Position numbers and translations under genes: made by a program | Shown: positions 1 through 62,430 of the stretch, one piece after another | Position numbering within the stretch: position 1 is the stretch's first letter | Layout: each line of letters starts with the position of its first letter | From: Chloroflexota bacterium | GTDB lineage: Bacteria > Bacteroidota > Ignavibacteria > Kapaibacteriales > UBA2268 | NCBI GenBank assembly: GCA_050260015.1 | Contig: JBLNBN010000022.1 | Coordinates: forward strand, 23,290 to 87,289 | Reading direction: 5' to 3' | DNA: 64,000 nucleotides | The notes under the pieces: model-generated | The model's input: only the letters and a program-made list of their open reading frames with translations | Told to the model about the DNA's origin: nothing | The model's database searches: none

Positions 1-3000
1 TTCGAGCCGTCGATAGCGCTCTTTATGCCTTTAGGCGTTACTGTGACTACCGCCGGTTGGGAGGTAGCGGAGTCGCAATCGTTCTTAATAATCGCTACAT
101 ACGTTCCTTTATGCGTTTCAGCTGCGGAGGCCACGTATAGCGTTTTATTCGTTTCGTTGGCTATAGCTTCGCCATCCTTGTACCATTGGTAGAGCATTGG
201 AGAATCGCTCGTCGCTTCTACAGTGAGCGCGAATTCTTTTTCTTCTTCCACCGTTACGTCCTGGGGTTGGGTAGAAATAGTCGGTCCGTCGTGGAACGTC
301 CAGCTAACTTCGGGAGTCTCCCAAACCTGGCCGCTGGGGAGCATCGTTACGCGCGTCTTTTGGATTTGATTGTCCTTGCTCGACGTCGGGCCCTCGAGAG
401 CGAAGCCCCAGGTATAATTCTGCGGCTGAGCAGTCGAGAAATCGATAGTTTCCTTGTAGCCGTACTTCGGATTCTGAGGATTATCCGTAATGTGTTCGAT
501 TATCACCTTGTCGAATTGGCCGAAGTAATCCAAGTCGACTTCCCATGCGACTGGCTGATCGCTAGCGCATTGGTCGATGTCGGCGTTTAGCTTATTAAAC
601 GTGATGCCCGGCTTGGGAACGAGGTTGATCGGCTTGGAAAATACCTTTCCGCATTGTCCTTCAACTTCGAGCACGTAGCCTAAGCTGCCGTCGTAATAAT
701 CCGCGCCCTGGATGTTCTTAATAAAGAGCTTCGGGGTGTTCGTACCGGTGAATTTGTCGCCGTCGGAAAGCTTAACGTCCGGAGCGCCCACGACCCTCTT
801 GTACCATTGATATTTCTGCTGGAAGAAAGGAGCCGTGATGCCCTTTATGTGCGCTTCGACGCTGAGCGTTGCGTTTTCGCCGTAGCCGGCCATGATAGAT
901 TCGTCCTGGCGAACGATCGAGGTCTTGCCAAGCGTATAAACGACGAGGTCCTTAGTGTCCAGACCCTGCGCTACGTTTGCGGGACCGTAAACGTGGCAGC
1001 GGTAAATGCCGGTGTTTTCCTTCGTTAATACGGGGATGCGGTATACCGACTTCGTTTCGCCGGGTATAGGCTGTCCGTCTTTGTACCATTGGAAGGAAGT
1101 CTCTGCGCCGCCCGTTACCTGGGCTACGACTTTCATCATAAGGTTCGTCGAGCCTTCGCATTCGAGCAATTCTTTTGGTTGCTCGATGATGGCGATCGAG
1201 AGGTTCATACCGTTCGAGCCGGAGTACCAGTAAGCCGTGCGCTCGTTGCCTAAGAAGTCAAACTTCTGGAAATCGGCGTCGACGTCCGCCGGCAATGCAA
1301 GCGGCGTGTTGAATACGATTGCGTCGACGTAGCGGCCGAGCTTCGTGCCAGCTTCTTCGTTGAACGTTATTTTCAGGTTTACCGACGTTTGATCGTTAGT
1401 AAGGTCTTTCCAACGCGTAATATCGTTGGGAACGTCCGTGCCGATCGTGTAGAAGTTATTCTGTGAGCCGGCGATTACCGGGGAGGCTGAATAATCAAAA
1501 GCTTTGCCCTTGCCGCGGTTTACGAAAATATTTCTCGAAGCGTTAAGGGATCCGCCGTTGACGCTCAGTACTGCGTTGGCGTCGCTATTGAGGTTGAACG
1601 TGTTGTAAATGTAATTGATCCCGTTATTGGAGACGTTCATTGCGCCGGTAGCGTTGTTGCCGACAACCGCGTTATCCGCAATGTAACCAGATGCGTTGGA
1701 CGCTTTAATGCCGCTCATAGCGTTACTCGAAGCCGCGGAGTTAACGACGATTTCGTTGTACGCCGCGCGAAGGTCGCCGCCGGCGTAGTTAATAGCCGCG
1801 CCGTTAATAGCGTCCGCGGAGCTGGACACCAATACCTTATTGTTGCGAATGACGGCTTTGGGGCCGGTTACGTAAATACCGTTTACGTTCTCTACGTTGT
1901 TTACTTCATTATTGGAGACAACGGTGGTTCCGGCGTCGAGCGCGGTTACCTTTATGCCCGCGTTAATATCGCCGGGCGAGTGAACTGCGGAGAGATTTTC
2001 AAGCGTGTTTTTCGTGATAGTAGCGCTGTGGCCGCGAACTTCGAACGCAGTGCGGGCGCGGTTCAATTTGTTGTTCATTACCGTGTTCTTCGAAATTTCC
2101 ACCTTATCGGTAGGAGTCGAAGTAGTAGCTTCAAGCAATACGCCCTGACGGGTAAATCCGCTGAATAAGTTGTCCTTAACGAGTAGATTTACCGGTTGGC
2201 CGTCGGCTGCGTCCGCAACTGAAAGCTGGTATGAACCGTTCAGGAATTGGTTGCCCTGGACATCAACGTTTTTCGAGTTCGTAATGCTGACCAAAGCGAA
2301 CTGCTGGGTGGAGCCGGCTACGCCGTTGAATATATTCTTATTCAATTTGAGGCCGTTTACCCCGCTGCCCGCGATAACGAATGCCGGGAAGCCGCTGGGC
2401 TCGACGTAACGGAAATTGATATCCGAAACGGTGATATTATTAGCGTTATTGAGCAAGATCGAATACGGCTGGCTCATCGTAGGAGTAGCCTGCCACGTAA
2501 CGTCGGCGCTCGAACCTGTGGAGGAGCGTATAATTACGTTGTTAGCCGCTTCCGTGTTCTCTATCTTGATTCGCTCGTCGTAGACCCCGGGCTCGATATT
2601 GAACGTAACGCCGCCCGCGCCGACAACGCCGATCACGCTAACGTAATTCGCCATATCCGCCAGCTTCGCAAAGTGCGAATTCGGCTTGCCTACGGAATAT
2701 GTTCCAGGCACGAGAGCCGGGGCTATATACCGATCGGGCGCGGAATTGTTCGAAGTCCATAAGTCGGCTTTGCCGTTGGCTTCGATAACCCATGTTTTGA
2801 ACATGTTCGATTTAATCGGCTTCTCAAATTGGAAATCGAAAGTACCGAGCAAAGCCTCGGCAGTTTGATTTTGGCTTAACGTCCCGAACCAGGTCTTGGG
2901 AGTCTGCTCGACGCCGTCGATGCTCCAACCAATTTTAACGCTGGTAAGCGGCTTACGGGAGTAATTCTTCAAATTTACATAAATATCGTGAACGCCCGTT

Positions 3001-4022
3001 CCGAATTTGCCGGTAGGCTGGGAGATAGCCGTAATTCCGGCGTCGTCCATCGTAGGCGAGGCGTTGGAAGTCTTTACGTCGTTGTTCGGGTCCGCGTCGG
3101 GAGTTCCGTTTGGAGCGCCGTTAATGTTGGTCGCCCATACCCTAATGCTGAACGGATCCCATGGGCCGTCCGGGCCGAACGTGAGGTTGTAATTTCCTAA
3201 AGCAATGTCGGCCGTCTGATTTACGGAGAGCTTGCCGGACCAATTAACCGGTGGCTGTTCCACGCCGTTGACGGACCAATGGACGGTCGCGCTCTTCACG
3301 GAGCCCTTTGAGCCGGAATTTTTAAGCGTCGCCGAGATCGGGTATGTGCCTTCGGAATAGGGCTGCGTCGGGAGAGTGATCGCCGAAATTGAAGCGTCCG
3401 GTATTATAGGCGAAGTTCCCTGGATCAGGACCGCGTCCATATACATATTATTACCGTACTTGCTTATAGCCTTGAAATGTATGTATGCGGCTTCAATCAG
3501 GAACGAATCTGGAATGGTATAGGAATAGTTATACCACCCATTGGCGGAGACGGAAGGCGAAAAATTAATAGCGCGATTTACCCTGCCGAGTAATCGAGCC
3601 CCGTTTACGATGGACGTGTCGTCGTCCACGTATACGTCTATGCATTCGCCGTCGTAACCGCTGGTTTGGTAGCCGTTATCCCTGTACATATAGAAACTGA
3701 CGGTATTTGATGCCATTGAGGAAAAGTCTATAGCGGGCGTCGTTAACCGGCAGGACGTGCCGCTCGACGCGCTGTAGGAATTATACCGGGCCATCGCGGA
3801 GCCGGCATACGGGCTGCAGGACGGCGAGCCGCCGGTCGTAACGCGGTTCCAAACCGTGGAGCTCGGCCCCGATTGAATTACGTTTTTCCATCCGGTCGGG
3901 GGGAAAGTCGTGCTTTCAAATCCCTCGTCGATGTACGTCGTGGTTTGCGAATACGCTAGCGGAGCCATCACAAAGAGAGCTATGATGATCCACCCTATTT
4001 TAAATCGAGTCAATAAACGCAT
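1..4022 (-). CDS. Giant secreted surface protein, N-terminal ~1340 aa (C-terminus lies beyond the left edge). Order: signal peptide, choice-of-anchor-J-like domain, CARDB-like sandwiches, right-handed beta-helix repeats, then an Ig / Ig / variable insert / Ig supermodule
   Basis: Absent from the ORF track because it has no stop in the window. Hand translation from the ATG at 4020-4022 gives MRLLTRFKIGWIIIALFVMAPLAYSQTTTYIDEGFESTTFPPTGWKN. The frame was checked in phase and open at ~2114 (ISKNTVMNN..ITKNTLEN..VSNNEVNN beta-helix-type repeats) and from 1268 to position 3 (IIEQPKELLECEGSTNL..FQWYKDGQPIPGETKSVYRIPVLTKENTGIYRCHV...). The stretch between these was read less carefully. Confidence 0.8.
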   Translation of the reverse strand, partial: MRLLTRFKIGWIIIALFVMAPLAYSQTTTYIDEGFESTTFPPTGWKNVIQSGPSSTVWNRVTTGGSPSCSPYAGSAMARYNSYSASSGTSCRLTTPAIDFSSMASNTVSFYMYRDNGYQTSGYDGECIDVYVDDDTSIVNGARLLGRVNRAINFSPSVSANGWYNYSYTIPDSFLIEAAYIHFKAISKYGNNMYMDAVLIQGTSPIIPDASISAITLPTQPYSEGTYPISATLKNSGSKGSVKSATVHWSVNGVEQPPVNWSGKLSVNQTADIALGNYNLTFGPDGPWDPFSIRVWATNINGAPNGTPDADPNNDVKTSNASPTMDDAGITAISQPTGKFGTGVHDIYVNLKNYSRKPLTSVKIGWSIDGVEQTPKTWFGTLSQNQTAEALLGTFDFQFEKPIKSNMFKTWVIEANGKADLWTSNNSAPDRYIAPALVPGTYSVGKPNSHFAKLADMANYVSVIGVVGAGGVTFNIEPGVYDERIKIENTEAANNVIIRSSTGSSADVTWQATPTMSQPYSILLNNANNITVSDINFRYVEPSGFPAFVIAGSGVNGLKLNKNIFNGVAGSTQQFALVSITNSKNVDVQGNQFLNGSYQLSVADAADGQPVNLLVKDNLFSGFTRQGVLLEATTSTPTDKVEISKNTVMNNKLNRARTAFEVRGHSATITKNTLENLSAVHSPGDINAGIKVTALDAGTTVVSNNEVNNVENVNGIYVTGPKAVIRNNKVLVSSSADAINGAAINYAGGDLRAAYNEIVVNSAASSNAMSGIKASNASGYIADNAVVGNNATGAMNVSNNGINYIYNTFNLNSDANAVLSVNGGSLNASRNIFVNRGKGKAFDYSASPVIAGSQNNFYTIGTDVPNDITRWKDLTNDQTSVNLKITFNEEAGTKLGRYVDAIVFNTPLALPADVDADFQKFDFLGNERTAYWYSGSNGMNLSIAIIEQPKELLECEGSTNLMMKVVAQVTGGAETSFQWYKDGQPIPGETKSVYRIPVLTKENTGIYRCHVYGPANVAQGLDTKDLVVYTLGKTSIVRQDESIMAGYGENATLSVEAHIKGITAPFFQQKYQWYKRVVGAPDVKLSDGDKFTGTNTPKLFIKNIQGADYYDGSLGYVLEVEGQCGKVFSKPINLVPKPGITFNKLNADIDQCASDQPVAWEVDLDYFGQFDKVIIEHITDNPQNPKYGYKETIDFSTAQPQNYTWGFALEGPTSSKDNQIQKTRVTMLPSGQVWETPEVSWTFHDGPTISTQPQDVTVEEEKEFALTVEATSDSPMLYQWYKDGEAIANETNKTLYVASAAETHKGTYVAIIKNDCDSATSQPAVVTVTPKGIKSAIDGS

Positions 4023-4246
4023 AAATACCCTCATATATTGATAATTCTGAAAAGTAGTTTTATCCTTACTTGTTTGTCGCCATTGACGGTGGCGGCACGT
4101 AGTATTACTTGTTACAGATTTTACAAGCAAACGACTACGATGCATATTTAATTTACTTTAAATATTTATAATATGCAAATTTTTTTCAGATTCTATTATA
4201 TGTATTAATTTCGGACGATTACAATCTATTATTTTTTGTTCATCCC

Positions 4247-7138
4247 CTACGGTTTTACTACTACAAACTTTTCGACATACGTTTCAGCGCCGCTTGACAT
4301 CACAATTAAATAGGCCCCGGAGGCGAGACGGGATATATCGCGACGTACGCTTCCCCGGGCCGTTTCCGCTGAAAAGCTCATTACCTCGCGCCCCGAAGCC
4401 TCGAGTATCTTAAAGCGAGCCGGGCCGGCGTCGCCGCTACTGAATGTAATTTCGAGCGCGTCCGAAGCCGGGTTGGGGCCGAGGGAGAGAATGCCGGGAC
4501 CCGCGGACTCGCCCTCCGCGCTCATTATTCCTTTCGGCTTGACCGTTATGTATACTACGTCGGAACCCAGGGGGCCGCATTTGCTGTATAGCTTAACCCA
4601 GTATTTGCCGGCGTCCTCGGCGCGGGCGGATTTGATGGTATAGGCAGTATCGGTCGCGCCGGGGATCTCCTCGCCTTTCCGGAACCACTGGTACGTGCAG
4701 GGCATGCCGGGCTTTTCCTGCTTCACGGTCAGGGTATGATCGCTCCCCTCGGCTACCTCGGCGCTCTGCGGCTGCCGCTCGATCGCCTGGTACCGGTAAT
4801 AGAACGTAGTGTCCGTTCGGCTCTCGAAGACCTCCCCGCCCGGGTAGAACGTAAAGCGCGTCTTGCGTATGTACGGACGGTTCGTTTTTATAAGGGTATC
4901 GTCATAATGAAAGGCATCGGGCCACCAGATACCGAAAAAATCTTTGTATGATTTAATTAATTCGTACGGCAGTTTATCTAAGTCTCTATATGGGGGAGAA
5001 AATGCGCGATTCATTAAAAATGCGGTATCGCCCCAGAACTCTGGCGCGTTATTTATAAATTCTACTTTCGCGGAATCGAAAGAACCGTACACATCGGATT
5101 GAAAGAACCAAACGCAGGGGCCGTCGCCCCCTTTGTGGGGATCCAGTACCTCGCTAAGGCAACGCTCCCTTGCCGAGAGACTTTTGTAGAGGTCCGTATT
5201 GTAACGGAAATAGACCGCGACTTTTGGGCGGAGGTTAATAACCCGGGAGTCTACGTCCGCGCACTGCCCGCTGATACGGAGGAAGTAGCCGTACTCCTCA
5301 AGGTAGCATTCAAGACCGTCGACAGTTTTAATTTTGAGCGCGGGCGTGTTTACGCCGGAGTATTGCTTGTTGTTAACGAGCTTTAGGTCCGGCGCTCCGT
5401 ATTGGCGACGATACCAGTGGTATTTAATCTCATGCGACTGATCGTCGATCCCCTGTAGTTCGGATTCGACTGAGAGAGTCGCGCCGCCGCCGTAGTCCGC
5501 TACAACTAACGTATCCTGCTTCGTTATTACTATCTTCCCGTACATTTTTAGGTCCGCCGAATCGGAGTACATCCCCGCGGGGAACGTCGTCGGCTCCCAA
5601 ACGCGGCACTTATAGCCGCCGGCGCGGTCCGCAGTCAGAACGGGGATTATAAGAGTTTTGTCAGTTTCGCCGGCGAGCGGCGCGCCGTCCTTATACCACT
5701 GGAAGCGGGGCTTGGCGCCGGGGTCCGCGTAAACCTCGACCCTAAGCTTTAGGTCCTTTTCCCCTTCGCAGGCGATCATCGACACGGGATGCTCTATAAT
5801 GTATACGGAAGGCGGGGGTATGACTTTTATTACGGCGGTGTCGGAGCAGATCGTGTCGCACTTGCTGCCCACCTCGACCCAGTATTTCCCCTCGTCGAAG
5901 TAGCCCGCGTTTTTTATCTTGAGTATTTTATCCTTCTGCCCGCGAAGCGGCGCGCCGTCGCGGTACCACTGGTAGGTCAATGGGAAATCGCACTTCGCCT
6001 CGACGGAGAGAGTAAAATTATTTCGCTCGAAGACGGTTTGGCTGCGCGGCTGCTTCGTTATCTCCTGCAGGTCGTGGAATATCCAGTCGGTCTTGACGCT
6101 TTCAAAAACCTCGCCATTTGGATAGAAAGTAATTTTAGTCTGATGAAATTGACTATGCTTACTTGTTGGAGTAAAAGAAAAAATTCCTGAACGCCAAAAC
6201 ATATGTATATCTCTTTTTAAAGCCTTTATTTGATTATATGTATAAGTCGATCGACGTATATTATCTCCTCCCCACTCTTCAAGAGGAGAATGTAGATGCT
6301 CTACTACAATAGAATCAAATACTCCTATTATTTTCGCATAGAAACCGTAGCTCCACCACCTTTGATCAGGATGATGTATTTCACATTCCCAAAAAGGACA
6401 ATCGCTAACTAAGGGGGGATAATCCCATTTAAATTTTACTCCCACTTTCGGACTGACATGCACTAAATCGGAGTATACCTTTCCGCACTGCCCGTCGACC
6501 TCGCAATAGTAGCCCTCGTTCTCGATATAGAATTCGTCGCCGTCGACGCGCTTTATTACGAGTTGGGGCGTTTTCGAGCCGGAGTACTGGTCGTTGTCCA
6601 TTACTTTCTCGTCCCGCTTGCCCTCGACGCGCCGCCACCACTGGTAGCCCTGCTGGAAGAACGGCGCCGAATAGCCTTTCGTATGCGCCTCCACGGTTAG
6701 AATCGCCTCCTTGCCGAAGGGAACTACGACGAGCGTGTCCTGGCGGACGATCGACGTCTTTCCGAGCTGGTAGACCACGGCGTCGCGCGTCTCGACGCTT
6801 TCTAATGGATTTGAAGCGTCCCATACCCGGCAGCGGTATATACCATTGTAGGTCGCGTTCATCTCGGGTATTTTGTAAGAGGATTTAGTTTCGCCCTCGA
6901 GAGCTTTCCCGTCCTTGTACCACTGGTAGCGAGCGACGACGCCCTCGGCGGTCTTCGCCAGCACGCGCAGCTTCAGGTTCTTCGCGCCCTCGCATTCGAG
7001 GAGCTCCTTGGGCTGCTCGATAATCTCGATTCCGGCTGAATACGCTTTTGCGCCCGCTGCTAAAAATAGAAGCGTTATAAGAAATAAAAACGGCGCGCGG
7101 GAGCAAGCGCGCTTGGAAATTGTCCCCATCGATTTCAT
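4247..7138 (-). CDS. Secreted Ig-superfamily repeat protein with a T9SS C-terminal sorting domain. It contains two copies of an [Ig1-Ig2-variable insert-Ig3] supermodule
   Basis: 963-aa ORF with a signal peptide (FLFLITLLFLAAGAKAYS). Ig modules carry C..W..C triads (LECEGAKNLKL..YQWYKDG..GIYRCRV). The C-terminus (LSLGPNPASDALEITF...YLIVMSSGAETYVEKFVVVKP) is typical of Por secretion tails. Confidence 0.9.
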   Translation of the reverse strand: MKSMGTISKRACSRAPFLFLITLLFLAAGAKAYSAGIEIIEQPKELLECEGAKNLKLRVLAKTAEGVVARYQWYKDGKALEGETKSSYKIPEMNATYNGIYRCRVWDASNPLESVETRDAVVYQLGKTSIVRQDTLVVVPFGKEAILTVEAHTKGYSAPFFQQGYQWWRRVEGKRDEKVMDNDQYSGSKTPQLVIKRVDGDEFYIENEGYYCEVDGQCGKVYSDLVHVSPKVGVKFKWDYPPLVSDCPFWECEIHHPDQRWWSYGFYAKIIGVFDSIVVEHLHSPLEEWGGDNIRRSTYTYNQIKALKRDIHMFWRSGIFSFTPTSKHSQFHQTKITFYPNGEVFESVKTDWIFHDLQEITKQPRSQTVFERNNFTLSVEAKCDFPLTYQWYRDGAPLRGQKDKILKIKNAGYFDEGKYWVEVGSKCDTICSDTAVIKVIPPPSVYIIEHPVSMIACEGEKDLKLRVEVYADPGAKPRFQWYKDGAPLAGETDKTLIIPVLTADRAGGYKCRVWEPTTFPAGMYSDSADLKMYGKIVITKQDTLVVADYGGGATLSVESELQGIDDQSHEIKYHWYRRQYGAPDLKLVNNKQYSGVNTPALKIKTVDGLECYLEEYGYFLRISGQCADVDSRVINLRPKVAVYFRYNTDLYKSLSARERCLSEVLDPHKGGDGPCVWFFQSDVYGSFDSAKVEFINNAPEFWGDTAFLMNRAFSPPYRDLDKLPYELIKSYKDFFGIWWPDAFHYDDTLIKTNRPYIRKTRFTFYPGGEVFESRTDTTFYYRYQAIERQPQSAEVAEGSDHTLTVKQEKPGMPCTYQWFRKGEEIPGATDTAYTIKSARAEDAGKYWVKLYSKCGPLGSDVVYITVKPKGIMSAEGESAGPGILSLGPNPASDALEITFSSGDAGPARFKILEASGREVMSFSAETARGSVRRDISRLASGAYLIVMSSGAETYVEKFVVVKP
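6620..6676. repeat. 57-nt tract identical to 8912-8968 in the paralogous gene
   Basis: The string gccctcgacgcgccgccaccactggtagccctgctggaagaacggcgccgaatagcc is present at both positions (it encodes ..FFQQGYQWWRRVEG..). Confidence 0.9.
6975..7021. repeat. 47-nt tract identical to 9258-9304 in the paralogous gene
   Basis: The string aggttcttcgcgccctcgcattcgaggagctccttgggctgctcgat is present at both positions, while flanking codons differ. Confidence 0.9.
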
Positions 7139-7174
7139 TGCATACCCTTTGTTTTATATAATTTACATTCGTTT

Positions 7175-9421
7175 TTACTGAATTATAATAAATTTCTCGA
7201 TGTACCTCTCGCCGCCGGATTCCATTACAAGCCAATACGCTCCCGAAGCGAGCGCGGAAATATCCCGCCGGACGCGCCCTTCGCACGCTTCGGCGGTAAA
7301 GCTCATCACCTCGCGGCCGCTCGCTTCGAGTATTTTAAACGTCGACTCGCGCTCCGGCGAATTAAACTTGATATCTAAGTATTCCGAAGCGGGATTTGGG
7401 CTTGCAGATAGTATCCCGTACGACTGCGAAATGTCGCGCGTTCCGGCTTTACCCTTCGGTTTAATCGTGATTATCGACGTGTCCGGGCGAACTGTATCGC
7501 ACGGAGAGACATGGATAAGATCGGAATATCTTTTCCCGCATTCGTCTTGAATTTCAAGATAATAACCGTCGCCGTCGACTAAATACTCGTTTGAATCGAC
7601 AGTTTTAATAGTCAGTTTCGTAGTATTTGTCCCGCTGTAACGCTCTCCGTCAATAACCTTTATGTCTTCATAACCGGTCTGTTTCCTGAACCATTGGTAT
7701 TCAACCTGATAAGTTGAATCCGTCGGACCTGTTAATTGTGTTTCGACGCTAAGCGTTCCGCTCCCGCCATATTTAAAGATCATCATCGAATCCTGCCTGG
7801 TAATTTCCATCTTGGGATACATCGCGACTTCCACCTCTTCCGAGTATACGCCTTCAAGAAAGGTATATGGGTCCCAGACGTGGCATTTATATTTTCCCAA
7901 CACATCCGGCGTCAAAACCGGTATCTTCAATATTGAATTCTCCTCTCCTATGAGCCTCGTGCCGTCCTTATACCACAGGTAACGAACTATGTCGCTCATC
8001 TCGTTTTCGGCGGATACCGAAAGCGTCAGATCGGCAGCTCCCTCGCATGCTTTAATACTCTTGGGCTGCTTCGTAATTTTAATGGTCGGCCAGGGCTTAA
8101 TCCGGATTATAGCCGTATCCGAGCGCATGGTGTCGCATACATGGCCAATTTCGACCCAATAAGCCCCTTCGTCTATGTAGCACCCCTTCTTAATAGTTAG
8201 CTTATTCTTCTTTTCCCTGTACAAAGTATCGCCGTTGTGAAACCACTGGTAAGTAAGACGATATATACTTTTCGCCTCGACCGATAAAGTGAAATTTTCA
8301 AGTTCGTAAACCGTTTGGCTCTTAGGCTGCTTCGTAATTACCGGTCCGTCGTAGAATATCCAGGTATACCCCTCGCTTTCCTGAACTTCGCCCCCCGGGA
8401 AAAAAGTAACCCGGGTATAATTTCTTTGGCTATGTTTACTTGTAGGTCTATTGGAAAATACAAGCGAACTGTCATAATACGAAATTGTATCATTCCGTTT
8501 TTTAAGAAAGGCTTTGCTAAAAACGCGTTTATAAGGCGTCCAGTAATCCGTCGCCCCTTCCGAGACGCAAACGTGCTCAATTTGCACGGAATCATAATCG
8601 CCCATTATTTTGCAGGTAATTTGATAATTCCAGTACTTCCCTTTCCTTTTTTTATCGTAAAGATATTTTGGGCAACCCTCGTATACAAACGGATAGATAA
8701 ACCCGGTAGAGAATTCGTCGGTAAACTTAACGCCTAAGTTCGGCATTACGCGAATTAACTTCGAATAGACCTTTCCGCATTGCCCGCGAACTTCGAGATA
8801 ATAACCTTCAAAGTTGGAGCAACACAAGTCGCCTTCCACGCGGCTAATATGTAATTGGGGAGATTTCGTACCGGAGTACCGTTCGCCGTCCTCCAACTTT
8901 ACGTCGCGGCGGCCCTCGACGCGCCGCCACCACTGGTAGCCCTGCTGGAAGAACGGCGCCGAATAGCCCTTGGTATGCGTTTCAACTTTCAGAACCGCGG
9001 TTTTACCGAATGGAACTTTAACGAGAGTGTCCTGGCTTAAGATTGCAGTTTTCGCGAGCGTATAGACGGCGACTTCCCGCGAATAGAGATTTTCCGAAGA
9101 CGTCCAAATACGGCAGCGGTATATGCCGTTGTAATTCGAATTCATCTTGGGTATTTTGTAGTAAGATTTCGTGGCGCCGGGAATGGGATTTCCGTCCCTG
9201 TACCACTGGTATTGAACCGCAGTCCCCTCGGGAACTTTAACAAGGACGCGCAGCTTTAGGTTCTTCGCGCCCTCGCATTCGAGGAGCTCCTTGGGCTGCT
9301 CGATTATTTCAATTGCGGCGGAATAGGCATTCGCGCCGGCGGATAAAAATAGAAGTGTAAATAGAAACAAAACCGGCGCGCGGAAAATAACGCGCGCGCA
9401 ATACGTGTCGCAAGTAATCAT
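7175..9421 (-). CDS. Paralogous secreted Ig-superfamily repeat protein with a T9SS C-terminal sorting domain. Its second supermodule lacks the insert and most of Ig3
   Basis: 748-aa ORF. The first ~60 residues after the signal peptide are near-identical to the 4247-7138 product (IEIIEQPKELLECEGAKNLKLRVL). The C-terminus is ILSASPNPASEYLDIKF...YWLVMESGGERYIEKFIIIQ. The gap to the next gene is only 36 nt. Confidence 0.9.
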   Translation of the reverse strand: MITCDTYCARVIFRAPVLFLFTLLFLSAGANAYSAAIEIIEQPKELLECEGAKNLKLRVLVKVPEGTAVQYQWYRDGNPIPGATKSYYKIPKMNSNYNGIYRCRIWTSSENLYSREVAVYTLAKTAILSQDTLVKVPFGKTAVLKVETHTKGYSAPFFQQGYQWWRRVEGRRDVKLEDGERYSGTKSPQLHISRVEGDLCCSNFEGYYLEVRGQCGKVYSKLIRVMPNLGVKFTDEFSTGFIYPFVYEGCPKYLYDKKRKGKYWNYQITCKIMGDYDSVQIEHVCVSEGATDYWTPYKRVFSKAFLKKRNDTISYYDSSLVFSNRPTSKHSQRNYTRVTFFPGGEVQESEGYTWIFYDGPVITKQPKSQTVYELENFTLSVEAKSIYRLTYQWFHNGDTLYREKKNKLTIKKGCYIDEGAYWVEIGHVCDTMRSDTAIIRIKPWPTIKITKQPKSIKACEGAADLTLSVSAENEMSDIVRYLWYKDGTRLIGEENSILKIPVLTPDVLGKYKCHVWDPYTFLEGVYSEEVEVAMYPKMEITRQDSMMIFKYGGSGTLSVETQLTGPTDSTYQVEYQWFRKQTGYEDIKVIDGERYSGTNTTKLTIKTVDSNEYLVDGDGYYLEIQDECGKRYSDLIHVSPCDTVRPDTSIITIKPKGKAGTRDISQSYGILSASPNPASEYLDIKFNSPERESTFKILEASGREVMSFTAEACEGRVRRDISALASGAYWLVMESGGERYIEKFIIIQ

Positions 9422-9783
9422 AACGCCCCTCGATAAAACGCATAAAATTTATATATAAGACAATAGCTTTCAATTTTCCGGGGTCTATAGGGCTAAGCCG
9501 CTCCGTAAGCCGATTCTGCAATTCAATAAAATTTTTGGAAGCCTAACTAATTTTAATCCTGAAATATAGTAAGCTTACTATAAAAATAAATTAAATGAAA
9601 TTATTAATATATCCAAATATTTTTTTGCATTAACCGTAAACTACTCCGCAATTATTAACGTTTTCTTAGTTTCTTTCCCCATAGTTTTTTTATTGCGGCA
9701 AAGGCGCTTAGTTTTGTAGTTTAAAAATAAACGCTTTAATCAATCCAGATATTAATTCATACAGATAACAGGCGGAAAAAGCA

Positions 9784-10995
9784 ATGTCTCAACCGAAGAA
9801 AATCGGAGTAATCACGAGCGGCGGCGATTGCGGCGGTCTAAACGCGGTAATCATCGGCGCGGCTCGAATGGGTTACAATTTAGGTATCGAAGTGTGCCTT
9901 ATACCGAACGGGTACGCAGGCCTTTATAATTTAATAAATCTCGAGCCGGTAATTATCGACATAGTGCGCGCCGATAAGATCCATTCCGGCGTAGCGGGCT
10001 CGGAGGCCGGGCACTCCCGCGTTAAGATCAGCAAAATCCAGGATCCTGACAAGTACACCCGCATCAAGGCCGGTCTCGCCAAGCACAACATCGACGGCCT
10101 CATCATCGCCGGCGGCGACGACACCGGCTCGGTCGTGGTGGACCTCGTCAGCAACGGCATCCGCTGCGTGCACGTCCCGAAGACGATGGACCTCGACCTG
10201 CAGACCTACTCCGTCGGCGGCGACTCGACAATCAACCGCATTGCGAAGTTCACCGACGAGCTCCGCACGACGGGCCTAACGCACAACCGCGCGCTTATAA
10301 TCGAAGTCTTCGGACGCTACGCCGGCCATACCGCCTTCCGCGGCGGCATCGGCGCGGACGCGGACGCGATACTTATCCCGGAAGTAAACGCCGACTATGA
10401 AATCCTCTACAATCACTTTAAGAAAGTTTACATCCAACGCCTGCTCTCGAGCGATATTAAGGGCACGACCTACATAATCGTAGCCGCCGAAGGCGTTAAG
10501 AACAAGGAAGGCAAGCACTTCTCCGACGACATGAGCGGGCAGGACTCCTTCGGGCACGTGCGCCTCTCCGGCGTCGGGCAATATATACGCCAGCAGCTCG
10601 AATTCTACATGAAGCAGGACCGCGATTGGGAATTTATACTGAAGCGCGAGGGCATTTACGTGGACGGCATCTACCAGTTCCCGGAGATCAGGGAAGTACA
10701 GCTCGGGCACCTCGTTCGCGCGGGCGGCACGAGCGCCTACGACGTTACGTTCGGCAAGCAGGCGGGCGGGGCGGCGGTTATGCTGCTGAAGAACGAGGTC
10801 TTCGGCGTGACCGTAGTGGGCGTCGAAGCCGACGAAATTTCCTATATCCCGACGAAGGAAGCCATAAAGCAACGCTACGTCGACGTCGACGAGATCGCAT
10901 TTTACGAGAACATGGGCGTTTGCTTCGGCAGAACTCCTACGCCGTACAACGCTAAATTTAAAGAGCATGAAGGAAAGATCCACAGATACATGTAA
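9784..10995 (+). CDS. pfp: Phosphofructokinase, predicted pyrophosphate-dependent (PFK family)
   Basis: Motifs KKIGVITSGGDCGGLNAVI, GGDDTG and VPKTMDLDL. The Asp in GGDD and the Lys in PKT are the residues associated with PPi rather than ATP use. Confidence 0.85.
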   Translation: MSQPKKIGVITSGGDCGGLNAVIIGAARMGYNLGIEVCLIPNGYAGLYNLINLEPVIIDIVRADKIHSGVAGSEAGHSRVKISKIQDPDKYTRIKAGLAKHNIDGLIIAGGDDTGSVVVDLVSNGIRCVHVPKTMDLDLQTYSVGGDSTINRIAKFTDELRTTGLTHNRALIIEVFGRYAGHTAFRGGIGADADAILIPEVNADYEILYNHFKKVYIQRLLSSDIKGTTYIIVAAEGVKNKEGKHFSDDMSGQDSFGHVRLSGVGQYIRQQLEFYMKQDRDWEFILKREGIYVDGIYQFPEIREVQLGHLVRAGGTSAYDVTFGKQAGGAAVMLLKNEVFGVTVVGVEADEISYIPTKEAIKQRYVDVDEIAFYENMGVCFGRTPTPYNAKFKEHEGKIHRYM

Positions 10996-30700: not shown

Positions 30701-32482
30701 TTATTTATAATCGTAATCCTGGGCCAGAAGCATGCGAACGAGCTTTACAGCCTCTTCCGTTTCGCCGTCGATGTAGGTCTCTACCTTGTTCTTGATCTCG
30801 AGCTTCATCATCGTGTCCTCGGTCAATTCCGCGGTGTCGGATTCGCCATAGGCGGAGCCGCGGGTCGCTAAGGAACCGGTAGAGCCTTCAAGGCTCAATC
30901 CTTCGCCGGAATCGTCGCTATTGTAGTACTCGCGCTCGCCTTCCAGCAGGAGTTGTTCGGGGAGGTCCGCGGGCAATAGGGCGAGCCCGTCCTTCATTTC
31001 AAAGTCGTCGAACGCGTCGAAGTTCTCTTCCTTCTCTTCCTCGAGCAGAATATCCTCGGCGACCTTGTCGTCGTCTATCGAGACCTTGGCGGGCAGGGAC
31101 AGGGCGATGCGGACGCGTTCCTTTATGTGCCTGGAGCTGAACAGCCTCCACATGATAAGCATGGCCATCAGCATCGCTACGGCCAGCGCTATTAGCTTTT
31201 GATTGCCGGGCTTAGTCCACCAATCCACCGGCTTGGAATCCTCGAGCTCCTGCTCCTGCCAGCTCGCGTCGAAGGGCACGTTTAGAACGGATATCTGGTC
31301 GTTGCGGTTCGGATCGTAACCGACGGCGTTCTTCACGGCAAGATCGAGCTGGTCCATCTCTTCCTTAGGACGGGGAATATACCTGAGCGATTTAACGCCC
31401 TGCCCGTTCTCGACCACCTTGTTGGTCCCGTTAACGAGCACGGAAACTGAAAGTCTCTTAACGTTGCCCACGCCCTGGATGATATGCTCTACCGTTTTGG
31501 ATATTTCATAATTCGAAATTACGTTGGATTGATCTTTGCTCTGGTTTACAGCCGGGTAGCTCAAGGAATCGGAGGAAACGCTTCGCTCCTGCAGGTTTTG
31601 CTCGCTGCGAATCACCTGCCTTTCCGGGTCGAAATCGGTGCGGGTCTGTTCGATCTTAGTAAAATCGAGATCGGCGTTGACGCGAACGGCCGCGTTGTCG
31701 GGCCCGACGACGCCGTTTAGAAGGGTTTGAACTTTATCGGCAATGTAACGCTCGACTTTCTGCTGCTGCTCGTGTTGGCTGGCCGTAAGCCCTGCGACGG
31801 AATTTTCGTCGAGCGCGGCTTCGCTCAGGGCTTTTCCCCGAGAGTCTATTATCATTACGTTATCGGGGGACATGCCCTCGATCGAGCTTGCGACTAAATT
31901 TTGTATGCCGCGCACGGAGGAGCGCTGAAGCGTCCTACCGGATTTCAGGTGAAGCGCCACGGAGGCCGTGGGCGGCTTTTCGTCTTCCTTGAATAAAGTT
32001 TTCTCCGGGGTGACTATATGTACGCGGACCTTTTTAATTTCCTCGATGGAGCCTATCGTCTTTTGAAGCTCGCCTTCGAGCGCGCGCTGGTGATTCAGCT
32101 TTTGAACGTACTCGCTCATGCCTAAATTGGCCTGGTCGAAGAGCTCGTAGCCGACCGTGCCGGAGCCGGGCAGCCCTTCGCCGGCCAGGGCTATGCGCGC
32201 TTCGTAGAGCTTTTCCCTGTCGACCATAATTCGCGAGCCGTTGTCCTCGAGTTGGTAGGCAATTTTATTTTCTTTTAGGTAATCTACGATTTTGGCGGCG
32301 TCCGCGCCTTCGACTTCGGAGTAAAGCGTACCGTATTCCGTCTTGTCGCCGGAGAGCGCGACGAGCAGGAGAATTACTCCAACGCCGAGCGCTACCGTGA
32401 CGATTAAGGCCGAGACCTTTTGCGCCGTAGATAATTTTCCGAAGAATCCCTTCGCCTGTTCGATTATTTTTCCGTTTGCCAT
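30701..32482 (-). CDS. fliF: Flagellar M-ring protein
   Basis: 593 aa. N-terminal TM helix, YSEVEGADAAKIVDYLKENKIAY, GLPGSGTVGYELFD, second TM helix near residue 440, acidic C-terminus. Confidence 0.9.
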   Translation of the reverse strand: MANGKIIEQAKGFFGKLSTAQKVSALIVTVALGVGVILLLVALSGDKTEYGTLYSEVEGADAAKIVDYLKENKIAYQLEDNGSRIMVDREKLYEARIALAGEGLPGSGTVGYELFDQANLGMSEYVQKLNHQRALEGELQKTIGSIEEIKKVRVHIVTPEKTLFKEDEKPPTASVALHLKSGRTLQRSSVRGIQNLVASSIEGMSPDNVMIIDSRGKALSEAALDENSVAGLTASQHEQQQKVERYIADKVQTLLNGVVGPDNAAVRVNADLDFTKIEQTRTDFDPERQVIRSEQNLQERSVSSDSLSYPAVNQSKDQSNVISNYEISKTVEHIIQGVGNVKRLSVSVLVNGTNKVVENGQGVKSLRYIPRPKEEMDQLDLAVKNAVGYDPNRNDQISVLNVPFDASWQEQELEDSKPVDWWTKPGNQKLIALAVAMLMAMLIMWRLFSSRHIKERVRIALSLPAKVSIDDDKVAEDILLEEEKEENFDAFDDFEMKDGLALLPADLPEQLLLEGEREYYNSDDSGEGLSLEGSTGSLATRGSAYGESDTAELTEDTMMKLEIKNKVETYIDGETEEAVKLVRMLLAQDYDYK

Positions 32483-33265: not shown

Positions 33266-33751
33266 CTATATCTCAAGCGCGTTTCGAGCCATTCCCTTGG
33301 CGGCCTCGACCACCTGCGTATTGGCTTCGAAGGCGCGCTGCGCCGTAATCATTTCCACCATTTCAGTCACTACGTTAACGTTGGGCATCTTTACGTAGCC
33401 GTTTTCGTCCGCCTCGGGATGCCCGGGCTCGTAAACGAGCCGAGGGGGAGTGTTGTCGAAAGCAGTCCTGGCCTTTAGAACGGAAACTTCCGGGGGATAG
33501 TCGCCGTTGCGCGCGGCCTGCCCGTGCTCGGCGGAAGTCCTTTCCATCGGCAATTGCGCCTGCATAGCGCGTTCGAACGGGGTGTCGGGCGCGGCCCTAA
33601 CTACGACGACTTCGCGCTTGTAGGGCTCCCCGTCGGGGCCTTTCGTCACGTTTGCGTTAGCGATGTTTCGCGCCGTCGCCGAAAGCCGCATGCGCTGCAC
33701 GCTTAAGCCTTGTCCGCTGATCGCGAACGATGAAAATATGTTTTCAGCCAT
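33266..33751 (-). CDS. flgC: Flagellar basal-body rod protein FlgC
   Basis: SGQGLSVQRMRLSATARNIANANVT and C-terminal VNVVTEMVEMITAQRAFEAN. Confidence 0.92.
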   Translation of the reverse strand: MAENIFSSFAISGQGLSVQRMRLSATARNIANANVTKGPDGEPYKREVVVVRAAPDTPFERAMQAQLPMERTSAEHGQAARNGDYPPEVSVLKARTAFDNTPPRLVYEPGHPEADENGYVKMPNVNVVTEMVEMITAQRAFEANTQVVEAAKGMARNALEI

Positions 33752-47327: not shown

Positions 47328-48779
47328 TTAACCTAATAATTCTTTTCTGCTTACGCCGATTGGCGAAACTCCGCCCGAGGGCCTGAGCATGTAAGTTAAG
47401 TAGCAAAATGCGTCGACCTGGTCGTCGTGGGCTCCGTTCGGAAATGAAAGCAGCTCGCTTTCGAACGTATCGAGCCAATCGGCCTCCTTCAACAGGTAAA
47501 CCGTACCGGCTTCCACCCGGGCGGCCATATCGAGCGAGCGGGCGAACTTGTCGCCTTTCGGCCTTAAATCCTTTACGGGTAGCCCGGCCCGGCGCGCGCT
47601 CTGTACGAGCGACAGCTGGTATTGTGAGCTTTCTACGCCAATCGCCGACGGCGCCCAATCGTCAAATATTTTCTTTAAAAACTCGAGATGGTCGGCAGCC
47701 TCGAGTTGGAGCCGAATCATCTTAAGCAGCGCAATTTCCCCTTTCGGGGCGATCGCGGCCACGGCGCAAGCTGTGTAATCGTTTCGCTCGCCAATTTTTA
47801 CCGCCAGGTCCACAGCGGCGATTATTTTGCATTCGCCGAGCGAAACGGGGGCGAACCCTCCGGCAGTATCCAAGAGGCAGCCCGGCGAGAGCAGTCGTAT
47901 GACGCTCCCTTCCGACTCGAAGTACCGCAGGTCCTTCCTTCGGAACGCGGCGCCCGAGCGCGGCTGCGGCGACTGCTGGTACATAGCCTCGAACCAATAC
48001 GAGCCGAGCTCCGCCCGGAATTCGCCAAGCTTATCCTCGTCGAACCGCTCCGGCCAAAGCGCCCGGCCTTCTTCGCGGCCCAGCGGATCGTTCTTTGAGG
48101 CGAAGGCGGGCAACGAAAGCGCCTTCCACTTATCGCCCCTTTTAGCGAGCTCGCCGGCGAGGTCGTCCTCGCTCCAGCGCGTCATAACGAGTATGGCCGC
48201 TCCGTTCGGTTCGAGCCTGGTGTAGGCGGTGCTGCGGAACCAATCGAGCAGCCCGCGCATAAAGTCGGGTTTATGCAGCCGTAAATTATTCTTTATCGGG
48301 TCGTCGATTATCAGCAAGTCGGCCCCGCGCCCTGTAATGGAGCCACCGGCCCCGACGGCGAACATTCCTCCGCCGTAATCCTTAAGCGCGAATTCCCCGG
48401 CGCGGCGCGAGCCGCGTTTCAATTCGAGCGAGAGGCGCTCCCCGCTCTCTTCTATTATATCGCGAACCGAGCGTGAAAAGTTGCGCGCAAATTCCGCGGC
48501 ATAAGAAATTAATATAATTCTCCGCTCGGGGAAGAGCGTCAGGTACCAAACGGGGAAGTACTTGGAAATAAATTCTGATTTGCCGTGCCTTGGCGGTATA
48601 CTAATTATTTGAAAGCGTTCGGCCCCGGCGGCGAGCTCCGCAAGGCGAATCCCGAGAAACTGTAAATGCTTCGCAGGGCGCCACCTGCCCCCGCTTAGCT
48701 CCTTCGCTAATGCGGCAGGCTGCGCAAACTCGCTCTCCCTGCCTGCGAGGAATATCCCTTTTTTGCTATAAGTTTTCAT
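47328..48779 (-). CDS. Phage terminase large subunit (TerL)-like ATPase-nuclease, orphan copy
   Basis: 483 aa. Walker A-like PPRHGKSEF, Walker B ADLLIIDDP, MTRWSEDDL coupling motif, and a C-terminal RNaseH-like nuclease with IIAAVDLA ... GAHDDQVDAF. Uninterrupted ORF. Confidence 0.75.
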   Translation of the reverse strand: MKTYSKKGIFLAGRESEFAQPAALAKELSGGRWRPAKHLQFLGIRLAELAAGAERFQIISIPPRHGKSEFISKYFPVWYLTLFPERRIILISYAAEFARNFSRSVRDIIEESGERLSLELKRGSRRAGEFALKDYGGGMFAVGAGGSITGRGADLLIIDDPIKNNLRLHKPDFMRGLLDWFRSTAYTRLEPNGAAILVMTRWSEDDLAGELAKRGDKWKALSLPAFASKNDPLGREEGRALWPERFDEDKLGEFRAELGSYWFEAMYQQSPQPRSGAAFRRKDLRYFESEGSVIRLLSPGCLLDTAGGFAPVSLGECKIIAAVDLAVKIGERNDYTACAVAAIAPKGEIALLKMIRLQLEAADHLEFLKKIFDDWAPSAIGVESSQYQLSLVQSARRAGLPVKDLRPKGDKFARSLDMAARVEAGTVYLLKEADWLDTFESELLSFPNGAHDDQVDAFCYLTYMLRPSGGVSPIGVSRKELLG

Positions 48780-50550: not shown

Positions 50551-50799
50551 GCTTACTCCGTCGATTAAATTTCTACAATTCCGCCTCCGTTATTCCGCGC
50601 GTAAGGAGCTGCGTAGAGCCCCGCGCGAAAGAAAGAAGTTAAACATACTTATAATATAATATACATTTTATTTATTTAATTCGCAAATTTTCTTTTCGTT
50701 CCGCTCCCCATCTTATTTTACAATGATTTTATTAAAGATTTTTTTAGTTATATTTGAATGAATAGTGCAATGAGCGATAACATAAAATATAGAGGTTAT

Positions 50800-55283: not shown

Positions 55284-56000
55284 ATGAAATCGAGTTTTGA
55301 TCAATCCGTGGAGAAAGCCTACGGACGCGCCATGAATACGGACGCGGTTAGAGATTTTATGACAAAGGTATACGGCTGGATGGTAGGCGGCTTGCTTTTA
55401 ACTGGCGGCACGGCTTACTTTACTGCAGCCTCGGGACTTTGGCAGTACTTCGTCGGCGGCCCCTTGATGTGGCTCGTTATTATAGCTCAATTCGGGCTCG
55501 TATTGGCCCTTTCGGCAGGCGTCATGAAGATGAGCTCCGCGGTCGCCACCGCGGCGTTCCTGGGATATTCCGCGCTTACCGGCCTGACTTTTTCCGCGCT
55601 GCTGATCGTCTTTGCCGAAGAAACTATATACCAGACTTTCTTTATAACGGCCGGCATGTTCGCCGCGCTCAGCTTCTGGGGCTACGTTACTAAGAAGAAC
55701 CTCACTGGGCTTGGCAGCTTTATGATTATGGGACTGGTGGGCATTATTATTACTATGGTCGTTAACGTGTTTTTTAGAAGCTCGGCGTTGCAGTTCTTGA
55801 TAAACTTTATCGGGGTCGTAGTTTTCGCAGGCCTAACGGCTTACGACACGCAGAGGATAAAGGAGCTCTACGAAGTGCAGTACGAAGGAACTGAAATGAC
55901 GAGAAAGGTCGCAATAATCGGCGCGCTCTCGTTGTACCTTGATTTTATTAACTTATTCCTCTTCCTGCTGCGCTTTGCCGGCGGATCCAACCGCGATTAA
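55284..56000 (+). CDS. Bax inhibitor-1 / YccA family membrane protein
   Basis: Seven TM segments, FMTKVYGWM, AYDTQRIKE and LYLDFINLFLFLLR. Confidence 0.85.
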   Translation: MKSSFDQSVEKAYGRAMNTDAVRDFMTKVYGWMVGGLLLTGGTAYFTAASGLWQYFVGGPLMWLVIIAQFGLVLALSAGVMKMSSAVATAAFLGYSALTGLTFSALLIVFAEETIYQTFFITAGMFAALSFWGYVTKKNLTGLGSFMIMGLVGIIITMVVNVFFRSSALQFLINFIGVVVFAGLTAYDTQRIKELYEVQYEGTEMTRKVAIIGALSLYLDFINLFLFLLRFAGGSNRD

Positions 56001-56041
56001 ACGCGGCCAAATTGACGAAGGATGATTATTAGGATGATAGA

Positions 56042-57139
56042 ATGCAACCGATAAGCCCGCTCTTTGCAGTCGAAGCGGAAAAATTAATAGCGGATGGCCA
56101 AATCTCCGATGCGATAGAACTCTGCCGCCGCGGACTTGAATTATTCCCGGGGTACGCGGCGGGAGTCGTAGCGCTAGCTAAGGCCCTGGCCGCCGCCGGC
56201 GACTCCAAATCGGCAAACGAAGAGCTTCAAAACGCATTCCAGGAGTCCTCCGGCTTTAAGGCTTTCCAAACGGATTTAGAAGTCGTCCATGATATTTTCT
56301 CGGCCGTAGATCCTTCGGAAAGCTTTAGAGTGATCGACGTCGTAGGCGACGAGGATGCGGAACAGGTAGCCCGCGAAGACGAAATGCCCGAAGAAATTGC
56401 GTTCGCGGACGAAATACCCGAAGAAACTGGAAGCGCCCCCGTGGAAGTTAAGGAGACGGTTTTCGAGCAAGACAGCGCCGTCGTAATAGACAACGAAGAC
56501 GAGATACCGCAATCCGCCCAAACGGCGCAGTTCGACGAAACTTTATTTTTAGAAGAGTTAGATCCCGCTTTCGTGACCGAAGAAGCTAACCCTGGAGATA
56601 TTCAAATTGAAATCGACGTTGAGCATGGATTTGAGAGCGCGGGTCCGCATATCGACGAACAAGACAGCGAGGAGGAATTCCCTATGGATTTAGAGCCCCC
56701 GCCAATTGAAGTTGAAGACGAAACGGAAGACGTCCCCAAATACTTCGCTAACGATTTCGATTTAATCTCCGGGCTTGAATTTTTCAGGTTCGAGGGAAAA
56801 TTCCGTCGCAACGACTACATGCGCGGGCTGCCCCTGGAAGCTTTCGACTTTCGCGCCCCGGGCGATCTCGACGCGTTGGCGTCGTCGCTTCGGAATGCAA
56901 GCGTTCCCCCGGCGCGGCGCACCCCCGTGGATAGCTTCGGGGAAGAACCTGTAAAAGCGCCCCCGTTTATGACGGAAACCATAGCCAACCTCTACGTGCT
57001 GCAGGGAGAGCTCGAGCAGGCGCGCGAAGCCTTTTTGCGACTTGCCGGGAGCGCCACGTCCCCTGAAAAGTCCGCTGAATACCTCGGGAAAGCGGAGGAG
57101 CTTCGCTTTCAGATAGAGATGCGCAAAGCCAACGAATAA
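56042..57139 (+). CDS. Hypothetical protein with TPR-like ends and a long acidic central region
   Basis: N-terminus AIELCRRGLELFPGYAAG, centre rich in D/E (EDEMPEEIAFADEIPEE), C-terminus ANLYVLQGELEQAREAF. Confidence 0.6.
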   Translation: MQPISPLFAVEAEKLIADGQISDAIELCRRGLELFPGYAAGVVALAKALAAAGDSKSANEELQNAFQESSGFKAFQTDLEVVHDIFSAVDPSESFRVIDVVGDEDAEQVAREDEMPEEIAFADEIPEETGSAPVEVKETVFEQDSAVVIDNEDEIPQSAQTAQFDETLFLEELDPAFVTEEANPGDIQIEIDVEHGFESAGPHIDEQDSEEEFPMDLEPPPIEVEDETEDVPKYFANDFDLISGLEFFRFEGKFRRNDYMRGLPLEAFDFRAPGDLDALASSLRNASVPPARRTPVDSFGEEPVKAPPFMTETIANLYVLQGELEQAREAFLRLAGSATSPEKSAEYLGKAEELRFQIEMRKANE

Positions 57140-57223
57140 GCCTGGAAAATAGCGATTTAGACTAACAACAATTAACGTTCGTTAATTGTTTTATATTGTT
57201 TATTTTAATACTCGAGGTTTGGT

Positions 57224-57859: not shown

Positions 57860-57886
57860 TCAATTATCAATGATCAATGATCAATT
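57859..57886. repeat. Four tandem copies of the heptamer ATCAAT(T/G)
   Basis: atcaatt atcaatg atcaatg atcaatt, beginning at the stop codon of the SRPBCC gene. Confidence 0.8.
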
Positions 57887-57909
57887 CCGTTCAGAATTAT
57901 TCAACGCAA

Positions 57910-57939
57910 AAGACCTTCCTGGCATCCCGGGAAGGTCTT
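57910..57939. terminator. Hairpin terminator between convergent genes
   Basis: Perfect 10-bp stem aagaccttcc / ggaaggtctt, followed by atatatttt. Confidence 0.65.
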
Positions 57940-57970
57940 ATATATTTTAAGCAAAGTTATTTATTAATAA

Positions 57971-58411: not shown

Positions 58412-58464
58412 AATTAACCTTTTTATAAAATGGATAAACTATATACAAATATAGGTAAAAATTA

Positions 58465-59148: not shown

Positions 59149-59232
59149 CGGCCTTTCATATTAATATAAATTGCTTTTTTGTTTCGTATAACGGTTAAAT
59201 TAAAAAATAATTGGAACTGGTACGAATATCCT

Positions 59233-60108: not shown

Positions 60109-60109
60109 A

Positions 60110-62368: not shown

Positions 62369-62430
62369 TGATCAGCCGCGTTACTCGCTTCGCATGGCGC
62401 GGAGGCGCAAGCGAATAGATTGAGATTACA

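Follow-up and report, generated by a model that had tools for sequence, protein, structure and literature searches.

The locus studied here raises the question of how one bacterial open reading frame (ORF) comes to hold codons with a GC content at third positions (GC3) of ~0.8 beside others at ~0.15, a contrast that bears on the debate over whether bacterial GC content is set by recombination and gene conversion, by selection or by mutation. The ORF, g2, is the middle one of three minus-strand genes (g1, g2 and g3) that make up the first 9.4 kb of a 64,000-nucleotide stretch of contig JBLNBN010000022.1 (assembly GCA_050260015.1), hereafter the window. An earlier note on this DNA had described in these genes almost unalignable, partly AT-rich insert cassettes between conserved, GC-rich immunoglobulin (Ig) modules, and had suggested cassette exchange or strong diversifying selection as what would produce them. 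Our comparisons indicate that the segments are copies of an orphan domain, here called X, standing in place of a canonical Ig domain, and that the AT-rich tracts in three of the copies may be recombination mosaics.

The three genes are laid out as follows:

3–4022, minus strand: g1, its C-terminal ~86 aa lying beyond the window start (full protein P0008, 1426 aa); choice-of-anchor J N-terminus, long central region, one Ig1-Ig2-X-Ig3 unit and a C-terminal sorting domain of the type IX secretion system (T9SS)
4247–7138, minus strand: g2 (P0001, 963 aa); signal peptide, two Ig1-Ig2-X-Ig3 units and a Por_Secre_tail T9SS sorting domain
7175–9421, minus strand: g3 (P0002, 748 aa); signal peptide, one complete supermodule, a partial second supermodule and a T9SS sorting domain

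Ig_3, Ig_2 and I-set domain matches are found in all three genes, and the long central region of g1 gave no family match. PF18962 (Por_Secre_tail) is detected at 39.0 bits in g2 and 40.6 bits in g3 (cut-off 27) and is also carried by P0008, while TIGR04183 reaches 31.7 and 25.4 bits in g2 and g3, respectively (cut-off 23). All three have a putative Sec signal peptide; judged by eye from the sequence, these combine a basic N-region, the hydrophobic core FLFLITLLFLAAGA and AKA/ANA-YS. Going by this domain content, the products of g1–g3 are T9SS type A cargo proteins bearing Ig-like repeats. The 123 kb contig that carries the full-length g1 product also holds a fourth paralog, P0005, of 1407 aa. 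The repeat unit Ig1-Ig2-X-Ig3, or supermodule, occurs once each in g1 and P0005, twice in g2 and, in g3, once complete and once without X and most of Ig3.

Domain X and its place in the module

The supermodules are present where the earlier note had placed them, and all four segment ranges match the boundaries to the codon:

288–617, minus strand: domain X, g1 copy; 110 aa; GC 0.53, GC3 0.69; 71% identity to the P0005 copy
4796–5227, minus strand: domain X, C-terminal copy of g2 (insB); aa 638–781, 144 aa; overall GC3 0.56
6074–6451, minus strand: domain X, N-terminal copy of g2 (insA); aa 230–355; GC at codon positions 1/2/3 of 0.44/0.38/0.27
8348–8743, minus strand: domain X, g3 copy (insA); aa 227–358, 132 aa; nearest to g2 insA, with 33–35% identity and a common PTSKHSQ motif

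Every copy is bounded by the same motifs, P-[KN]-x-[GA]-[VI]-x-F at the entry and T-[KR]-x-T-[FM]-x-P-x-G-[EQ]-V-x-E-[ST]...F-[HY]-[DR] at the exit. The idea of conserved flanks stands for these motifs but has to be tempered for the Ig domains around them, which are only moderately conserved between paralogs (40–68% amino-acid identity, 52–74% nucleotide identity, and at least 0.8 synonymous substitutions per site, dS). Describing the segments as almost unalignable, in turn, overstated their divergence: tblastn among the copies returns E-values of 1e-15 to 1e-3 at 25–36% identity, and 12 columns are invariant across X copies, including C, G.FDS..VEH, PTS and T.TF.P.GEV.ES. By these alignments the segments are homologous to one another.

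At this level of identity, the variable region of 110–145 aa compares with flanking Ig domains at 32–68%, or 40–68% within g2/g3 pairs. Nonsynonymous divergence (dN) gives a similar picture, with 0.66–0.88 in X versus 0.21–0.67 in flanking Ig domains, ranges that meet only at g1 Ig3; the dN of X thus lies above that of most neighbouring Ig domains and is 2–3 fold that of the best-conserved ones. Since dS is saturated in the inserts, dN/dS is uninformative on positive selection.

The term insert itself proved misleading. We inspected 19 homologs that lie on other contigs and belong to 18 further clusters at 90% identity, most of them members of a ~1,380-aa family with a GEVED domain, four Ig domains and a sorting domain. 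All 19 have, where X would be, a canonical Ig domain of ~95 aa, preceded by the 'GQCG' end of Ig2 and followed by the last Ig. In the third Ig of these homologs, the A-strand Phe and the Cys are as far apart as in the g1 copy. The module thus has four domains, of which the segment is the third, with no insertion involved. On this comparison X is an orphan domain of ~110–145 aa in place of a canonical Ig, a new element here, and the module has been duplicated into at least four paralogous T9SS cargo genes, with five X copies, in one Kapabacteria-like genome.

A profile built from the five copies and run exhaustively against 1.84 billion representative proteins matched only paralogs on its own contig. 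No relatives of X appeared in Joint Genome Institute (JGI) metagenome contigs or in viral contigs, a PDB sequence search gave no match, and Pfam returned none at E ≤1 except DUF1102 at E 0.1. Among 80 relatives, the 10 kb upstream of the phosphofructokinase (PFK) gene, which adjoins the cluster in the window, held no X homolog, and canonical Ig modules were present at only two of these loci. As far as these collections reach, X is restricted to its own lineage.

AlphaFold2 models of the g2 and g1 copies contain 7–8 strands (predicted local distance difference test, pLDDT, of 66 and 70.5; predicted template modelling score, pTM, of 0.65–0.66). Among the matches listed by Foldseek, sandwich domains of the Ig, FN3, V-set, GH2 and complement-MG (C3-type) kinds predominate, at weak scores (E 3e-3 to 5e-2, template modelling score 0.36–0.55). 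X is probably, as modelled, an Ig-like beta-sandwich with enlarged loops, and it would either have diverged past sequence recognition or have displaced the ancestral Ig domain. In surface adhesin-like proteins it plausibly forms the part that is exposed or faces the ligand, and we regard it as a candidate ligand-binding module of T9SS adhesin-like proteins.

One of the homologs with a canonical Ig, P0052, adjoins phage-like genes encoding RhuM, an ORF6N antirepressor-like protein and a Mu-type portal (L081:1067-2256, L082:6186-7232). Judging from these neighbours, at least one family member is located beside a prophage.

Composition of the AT-rich tracts

The AT-rich cores reported for three of the four segments are real. 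GC is 0.343 at 6120–6440, 0.386 at 8400–8720 and 0.392 at 4925–5110 (z = −5.5, −4.4 and −3.3, respectively), values below every one of ~1,050–1,200 same-size coding windows drawn from 36 other ORFs (mean 0.553, sd 0.038–0.048). The g1 copy has no AT dip and its GC3, 0.69, is normal. The dip lies mainly at synonymous, third codon positions, with GC3 0.27 in g2 insA against 0.77–0.78 in its flanks. Relative to 45-codon windows in other ORFs (mean GC3 0.69, sd 0.083, minimum 0.40), the following low-GC3 stretches were delimited, the codon-adaptation-index-like (CAI-like) score being added where computed for the tract; the adjacent spacer is given for comparison:

4035–4246, no strand: intergenic spacer between g2 and g1; GC about 0.29; composition like that of g2 insA synonymous sites
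4886–5104, minus strand: low-GC3 core of g2 insB; aa 679–751; GC3 0.40; CAI-like score 0.57
6101–6469, minus strand: maximal low-GC3 tract of g2; aa 224–346; GC3 0.23, falling to 0.13 in aa 271–340; CAI-like score 0.46
7490–7744, minus strand: low-GC3 tract in Ig2b of g3, an ordinary Ig domain; GC3 0.39
8402–8536, minus strand: low-GC3 core of X in g3; aa 296–340; GC3 0.24

CAI-like scores of 0.46–0.57 in the low-GC3 tracts compare with 0.67–0.80 in other genes. The low-GC3 segment of g2 has a log-likelihood ratio (LLR) of 56.8, and codon usage switches within a few codons at both of its borders (~aa 219–224 and ~aa 346), inside the entry and exit motifs. Conserved motif residues in g2 insA likewise use A/T-ending codons; taken together with the sharp switch, this means that the shift is a property of the tract and not a side effect of variable residues. 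At four-fold sites g2 insA has A.38, C.10, G.12 and T.40 against a background of A.10, C.42, G.32 and T.15, a composition similar to that of local intergenic DNA. Amino-acid composition was considered as the source of the AT-richness and rejected: GC2 is unchanged, the four-fold sites are inverted and the conserved-motif codons are AT-ending.

The low-GC3 cores of g2 insA, g3 insA and g2 insB coincide in position within the domain, each falling in the stretch that separates the VEH from the KTRVTF strand. The opposition of AT-rich core and GC-rich flanks drawn by the earlier note holds for these three cores but gives way in g3, where low GC3 extends beyond the insert: Ig2b is at 0.39 and the whole gene at 0.55, the lowest among large window ORFs (next lowest 0.59). 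Given the low GC3 of Ig2b, compositional patchiness affects the whole paralog cluster and not X alone. Along the g2–g3 alignment, amino-acid identity and GC3 are correlated (rho 0.53, p 0.014).

Within its clade it is the host genome that is the GC-rich outlier. GC is 0.52 in the window versus 0.29–0.48 in the loci of 50 relatives (L001–L050); PFK has GC3 0.76 in the host and a median of 0.32 (range 0.17–0.66) in the 25 closest relatives; and the homologous module genes P0052 and P0036 stay at GC3 0.23 and 0.27 throughout. With such AT-rich clade values, the composition of the g2 tract is typical of the clade. The intergenic spacers of the host are very AT-rich nonetheless (0.21–0.37).

Origin of the tracts

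We favour, at a probability of about one half, the reading that the AT-rich tracts are evolutionary-scale recombination mosaics anchored in conserved flanks, as opposed to products of programmed switching. Homologous recombination with the conserved entry and exit motifs as its anchors would leave a compositional mosaic. The tract would then have come in from an AT-rich allele or relative, or else have been too divergent to be homogenised or GC-enriched along with its flanks. Since the host has GC3 ~0.7 in a clade of GC3 ~0.2–0.3, a tract at GC3 0.13–0.25 looks imported or unhomogenised, and the g2 insA tract, in which codon usage changes over a few codons at either border motif, resembles a recombination tract, which makes exchange or non-homogenisation plausible. 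In this form, with a conserved scaffold, a distinct core and sharp borders, the cassette exchange proposed earlier remains plausible over evolutionary time, but no active cassette system is supported. The recombination origin and the direction of transfer, like the function of X, we infer.

Several observations weigh against a recombination mosaic. No donor or alternative X allele was found among the 1.84 billion representatives or in the JGI metagenome and viral contigs, and the AT-rich relatives that carry the module have a canonical Ig, not X, so that import requires an unsampled AT-rich lineage with X. That three copies of ancient divergence have their low-GC3 cores at homologous positions could instead reflect a persistent domain-specific force. 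Because the Ig flanks of the paralogs have not been recently homogenised (dS at least 0.8), a tract that is an 'unconverted residue' needs sharp borders that are long-lasting. As for the kinship of X with the Ig domain that it replaces, hhalign of X against the canonical third Ig gives a probability of 0.1% without flanks and 14% with flanks, neither significant, and the fold assignment depends on AlphaFold2 models of medium confidence made from a 5-sequence alignment.

A second strain, represented by Logan contig L084 (SRR24085902), covers window positions 1–6649 and ends inside Ig2a, with 99.67% identity to the window (22 single-nucleotide polymorphisms, SNPs, in 6,649 sites, no gaps). Downstream of g1, this strain carries a gene (L084:7225–8445) for a P0005-like GEVED protein whose first 407 aa are 62% identical to P0005, in contrast with the 99.67% identity of g2 and g1 between the assemblies. 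In g1, 4/7 amino-acid differences between the assemblies fall in the last 80 residues. This pattern suggests that alleles have been replaced at the strain level, the breakpoint being close to the 3′ end of g1, on the assumption that P0005 adjoins g1 in the source contig. Within the window, dS between g2 and g3 is about 0.8–1.2 over signal-Ig1a-Ig2a and saturated in the remainder, consistent with a younger 5′ part common to both genes. With the loss of X and most of Ig3 from the second g3 supermodule added, the paralog cluster has a mosaic history.

A 62%-identical neighbour gene in an otherwise 99.7% identical strain hints at replacements at this locus, and one may speculate that X is a population-level swap unit, with whole third-domain alleles and neighbouring paralog segments exchanged via the conserved Ig flanks, including with AT-rich relatives. 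We consider this rather unlikely. Were it true, the cluster would be a natural experiment in which GC enrichment in an outlier lineage follows recombination and homogenisation, not mutation.

The alternative that survives best does without import. Lineage GC3 would have been raised by GC-biased gene conversion, or by selection acting through inter-strain recombination, and X, too divergent to recombine, would have stayed near the AT mutational equilibrium. Such a local escape from GC enrichment, which we hold possible if tentative, accounts for the match between g2 insA four-fold sites and intergenic composition and for an outlier host in an AT-rich clade; low GC3 is also seen in non-insert parts of g3 and in g1 Ig3, the conserved X of the g1/P0005 type has normal GC3 and the divergent copies are AT-rich, and the correlation of identity with GC3 along g2–g3 points the same way. 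A link of this kind is documented in bacteria by Lassalle et al. 2015 (PMC4450053), where GC content is tied to evidence of intragenic recombination and an explanation is offered for within-genome compositional heterogeneity; their relation is gene-scale and taken over genomes, whereas ours is a domain-scale contrast within one ORF. The abruptness of the borders speaks against an escape, given that GC3 drops from ~0.8 to ~0.15 within a few codons, conserved motif codons included, where declining recombination predicts a gradient, and so does the identity of the g2 copies of X in both strains.

Selection on the codons themselves seems improbable as the source of the tracts. AT-ending rare codons might be kept for slow translation (folding or export), or the DNA or RNA might bear a regulatory signal (an internal promoter or low-structure mRNA), and both the homologous positions of the cores in three copies with otherwise saturated synonymous sites and the drop in CAI-like score would fit. 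The g1 copy, however, lacks any such bias, and the tract in g2 runs over 123 consecutive codons, when rare-codon clusters are typically far shorter. Nor did the locus yield an Rfam element at E up to 0.1, and of the tandem repeats called, three marginal ones, none lies in an insert.

Less credible still is an assembly artefact joining the homologous segment of an AT-rich organism through the conserved Ig flanks. The contig does belong to a metagenome-assembled genome (MAG), a 'Chloroflexota' label on one protein of this contig contradicts the Kapabacteria-like placement, and paralogous repeats break assemblies, L084 itself stopping inside Ig2a. Yet L084 reproduces both junctions of both g2 tracts unchanged, its 22 differences lying at other sites, which makes a chimera unlikely; moreover, the reading frame and conserved motifs are uninterrupted over the borders, and no other organism with X is present in the searched collections.

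The silent or donor copies that cassette exchange would draw on did not emerge: blastn (word size 7) and tblastn of the four inserts against the 64 kb returned only the four expressed copies, with no further X at the DNA or protein level, and the window searches found no template repeat matching any insert. Inverted repeats of at least 25 nt are absent from 1–9800. Pfam scans of 30 ORFs at 9,784–55,211 (the ORFs at 55,284–63,561 left out) detected no reverse transcriptase or recombinase, the scanned ORFs being housekeeping, flagellar, two-component and other T9SS genes plus one lone terminase. The expected excess of polymorphism in the inserts is likewise missing, with 0 SNPs in the 810 bp of g2 insA and insB versus 6 in the remaining 1,590 bp of g2 that L084 spans, a count from one close pair with little power whose members differ by 0.33% elsewhere; the g1 insert holds 1/15 of the g1 SNPs between the window and L084. 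Over the sequence searched and for this one strain pair, the hallmarks of silent-cassette antigenic variation, of a diversity-generating retroelement (DGR) and of an invertible switch are missing from the locus, and programmed diversification of X by silent-cassette gene conversion, a DGR or site-specific inversion, for which the conserved-flank/variable-core layout in surface-protein paralogs is all that speaks, is largely refuted.

Known systems, host and neighbourhood

The closest likeness is to T9SS type A cargo of Bacteroidota and the Fibrobacteres–Chlorobi–Bacteroidetes (FCB) group with tandem Ig repeats, which have the same signal peptide, Ig_3/I-set repeats and C-terminal sorting domain. 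With the ~1,380-aa GEVED family (P0036, P0052 and others), g1 and P0005 have the full architecture in common, at 35–41% identity in the Ig modules; the difference here is that the third Ig is replaced by X and that the module is duplicated into the shorter g2 and g3, which lack the N-terminal region.

Mosaic surface antigens, such as the fliC central region and pneumococcal pspA, have conserved ends that anchor recombination and a divergent centre of lower GC. By analogy, the tracts described here would resemble them in their conserved flanks, their divergent low-GC core and the homologous recombination invoked for both; unlike in those systems, no alternative alleles or donor were observed here, the host clade is uncultured and the GC3 contrast (0.13–0.23 versus ~0.77) is unusually extreme. 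Neisseria pilE/pilS, Borrelia vlsE and DGRs are alike in pairing a variable core with constant flanks in a surface protein, and the present locus departs from them in having no silent cassettes (64 kb), no template repeat, no reverse transcriptase (30 ORFs) and no inter-strain variation in the g2 inserts (one pair).

Another likeness is to segmentally variable genes, characterised by Zheng, Roberts & Kasif 2004 (PMC387263) by well-conserved regions that enclose a variable one of at least 70 aa and by environment-facing products, with a binding function suggested for the variable regions. X has this layout, with the difference that paralogs within one genome are compared here and that the variable segment also stands out in composition at synonymous sites.

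What would be new at this locus is the combination of an orphan X replacing a canonical Ig with an extreme domain-scale GC3 contrast in a GC-rich outlier lineage. If the tracts are recombination mosaics, the cluster offers a clean domain-scale case of surface-protein paralog diversification in an uncultured FCB-group lineage; if the g2 tract is merely an old recombination scar, g2 is an ordinary mosaic gene.

The PFK gene next to the cluster (9784–10995) has 82% identity to Candidatus Kapabacteria MAGs, and from this similarity the host is a Kapabacteria-like member of the FCB group. P0005 (MGE5479287.1) is labelled 'Chloroflexota bacterium' at NCBI, while PFK similarity and T9SS sorting domains indicate Kapabacteria/FCB; the MAG was probably binned wrongly or given the wrong label.

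The second supermodule of g3 is cut short at 7442–7504 (minus strand, aa 640–660), where the Ig2b end '...LIHVSP' is fused to an orphan Ig3 F/G-strand remnant, 'CDTVRPDTSIITIKPKG', followed by the sorting domain. Judging from the sequence around it, a deletion in frame seems to have produced this junction.

Antisense ORFs over the inserts (plus strand; 186–590, 5789–6190 and 8315–8737; 133–140 aa) were considered as genes and rejected. They occupy the exact mirror frame of the sense codons, and we judge them frame artefacts because that frame stays open if the sense strand avoids TTA, CTA and TCA.

Elsewhere in the window, another Por_Secre_tail protein is encoded at 50758–53505. Flagellar genes, for a FliF M-ring protein and a FlgB/C-type rod protein, are found in this T9SS-bearing FCB-group genome at 30701–32482 and 33266–33751 (minus strand). 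An isolated phage terminase large subunit ORF with Terminase_6N and Terminase_6C domains (47328–48779, minus strand) is surrounded by genes of the chromosome; it may be a gene-transfer-agent-like element or what remains of a prophage.

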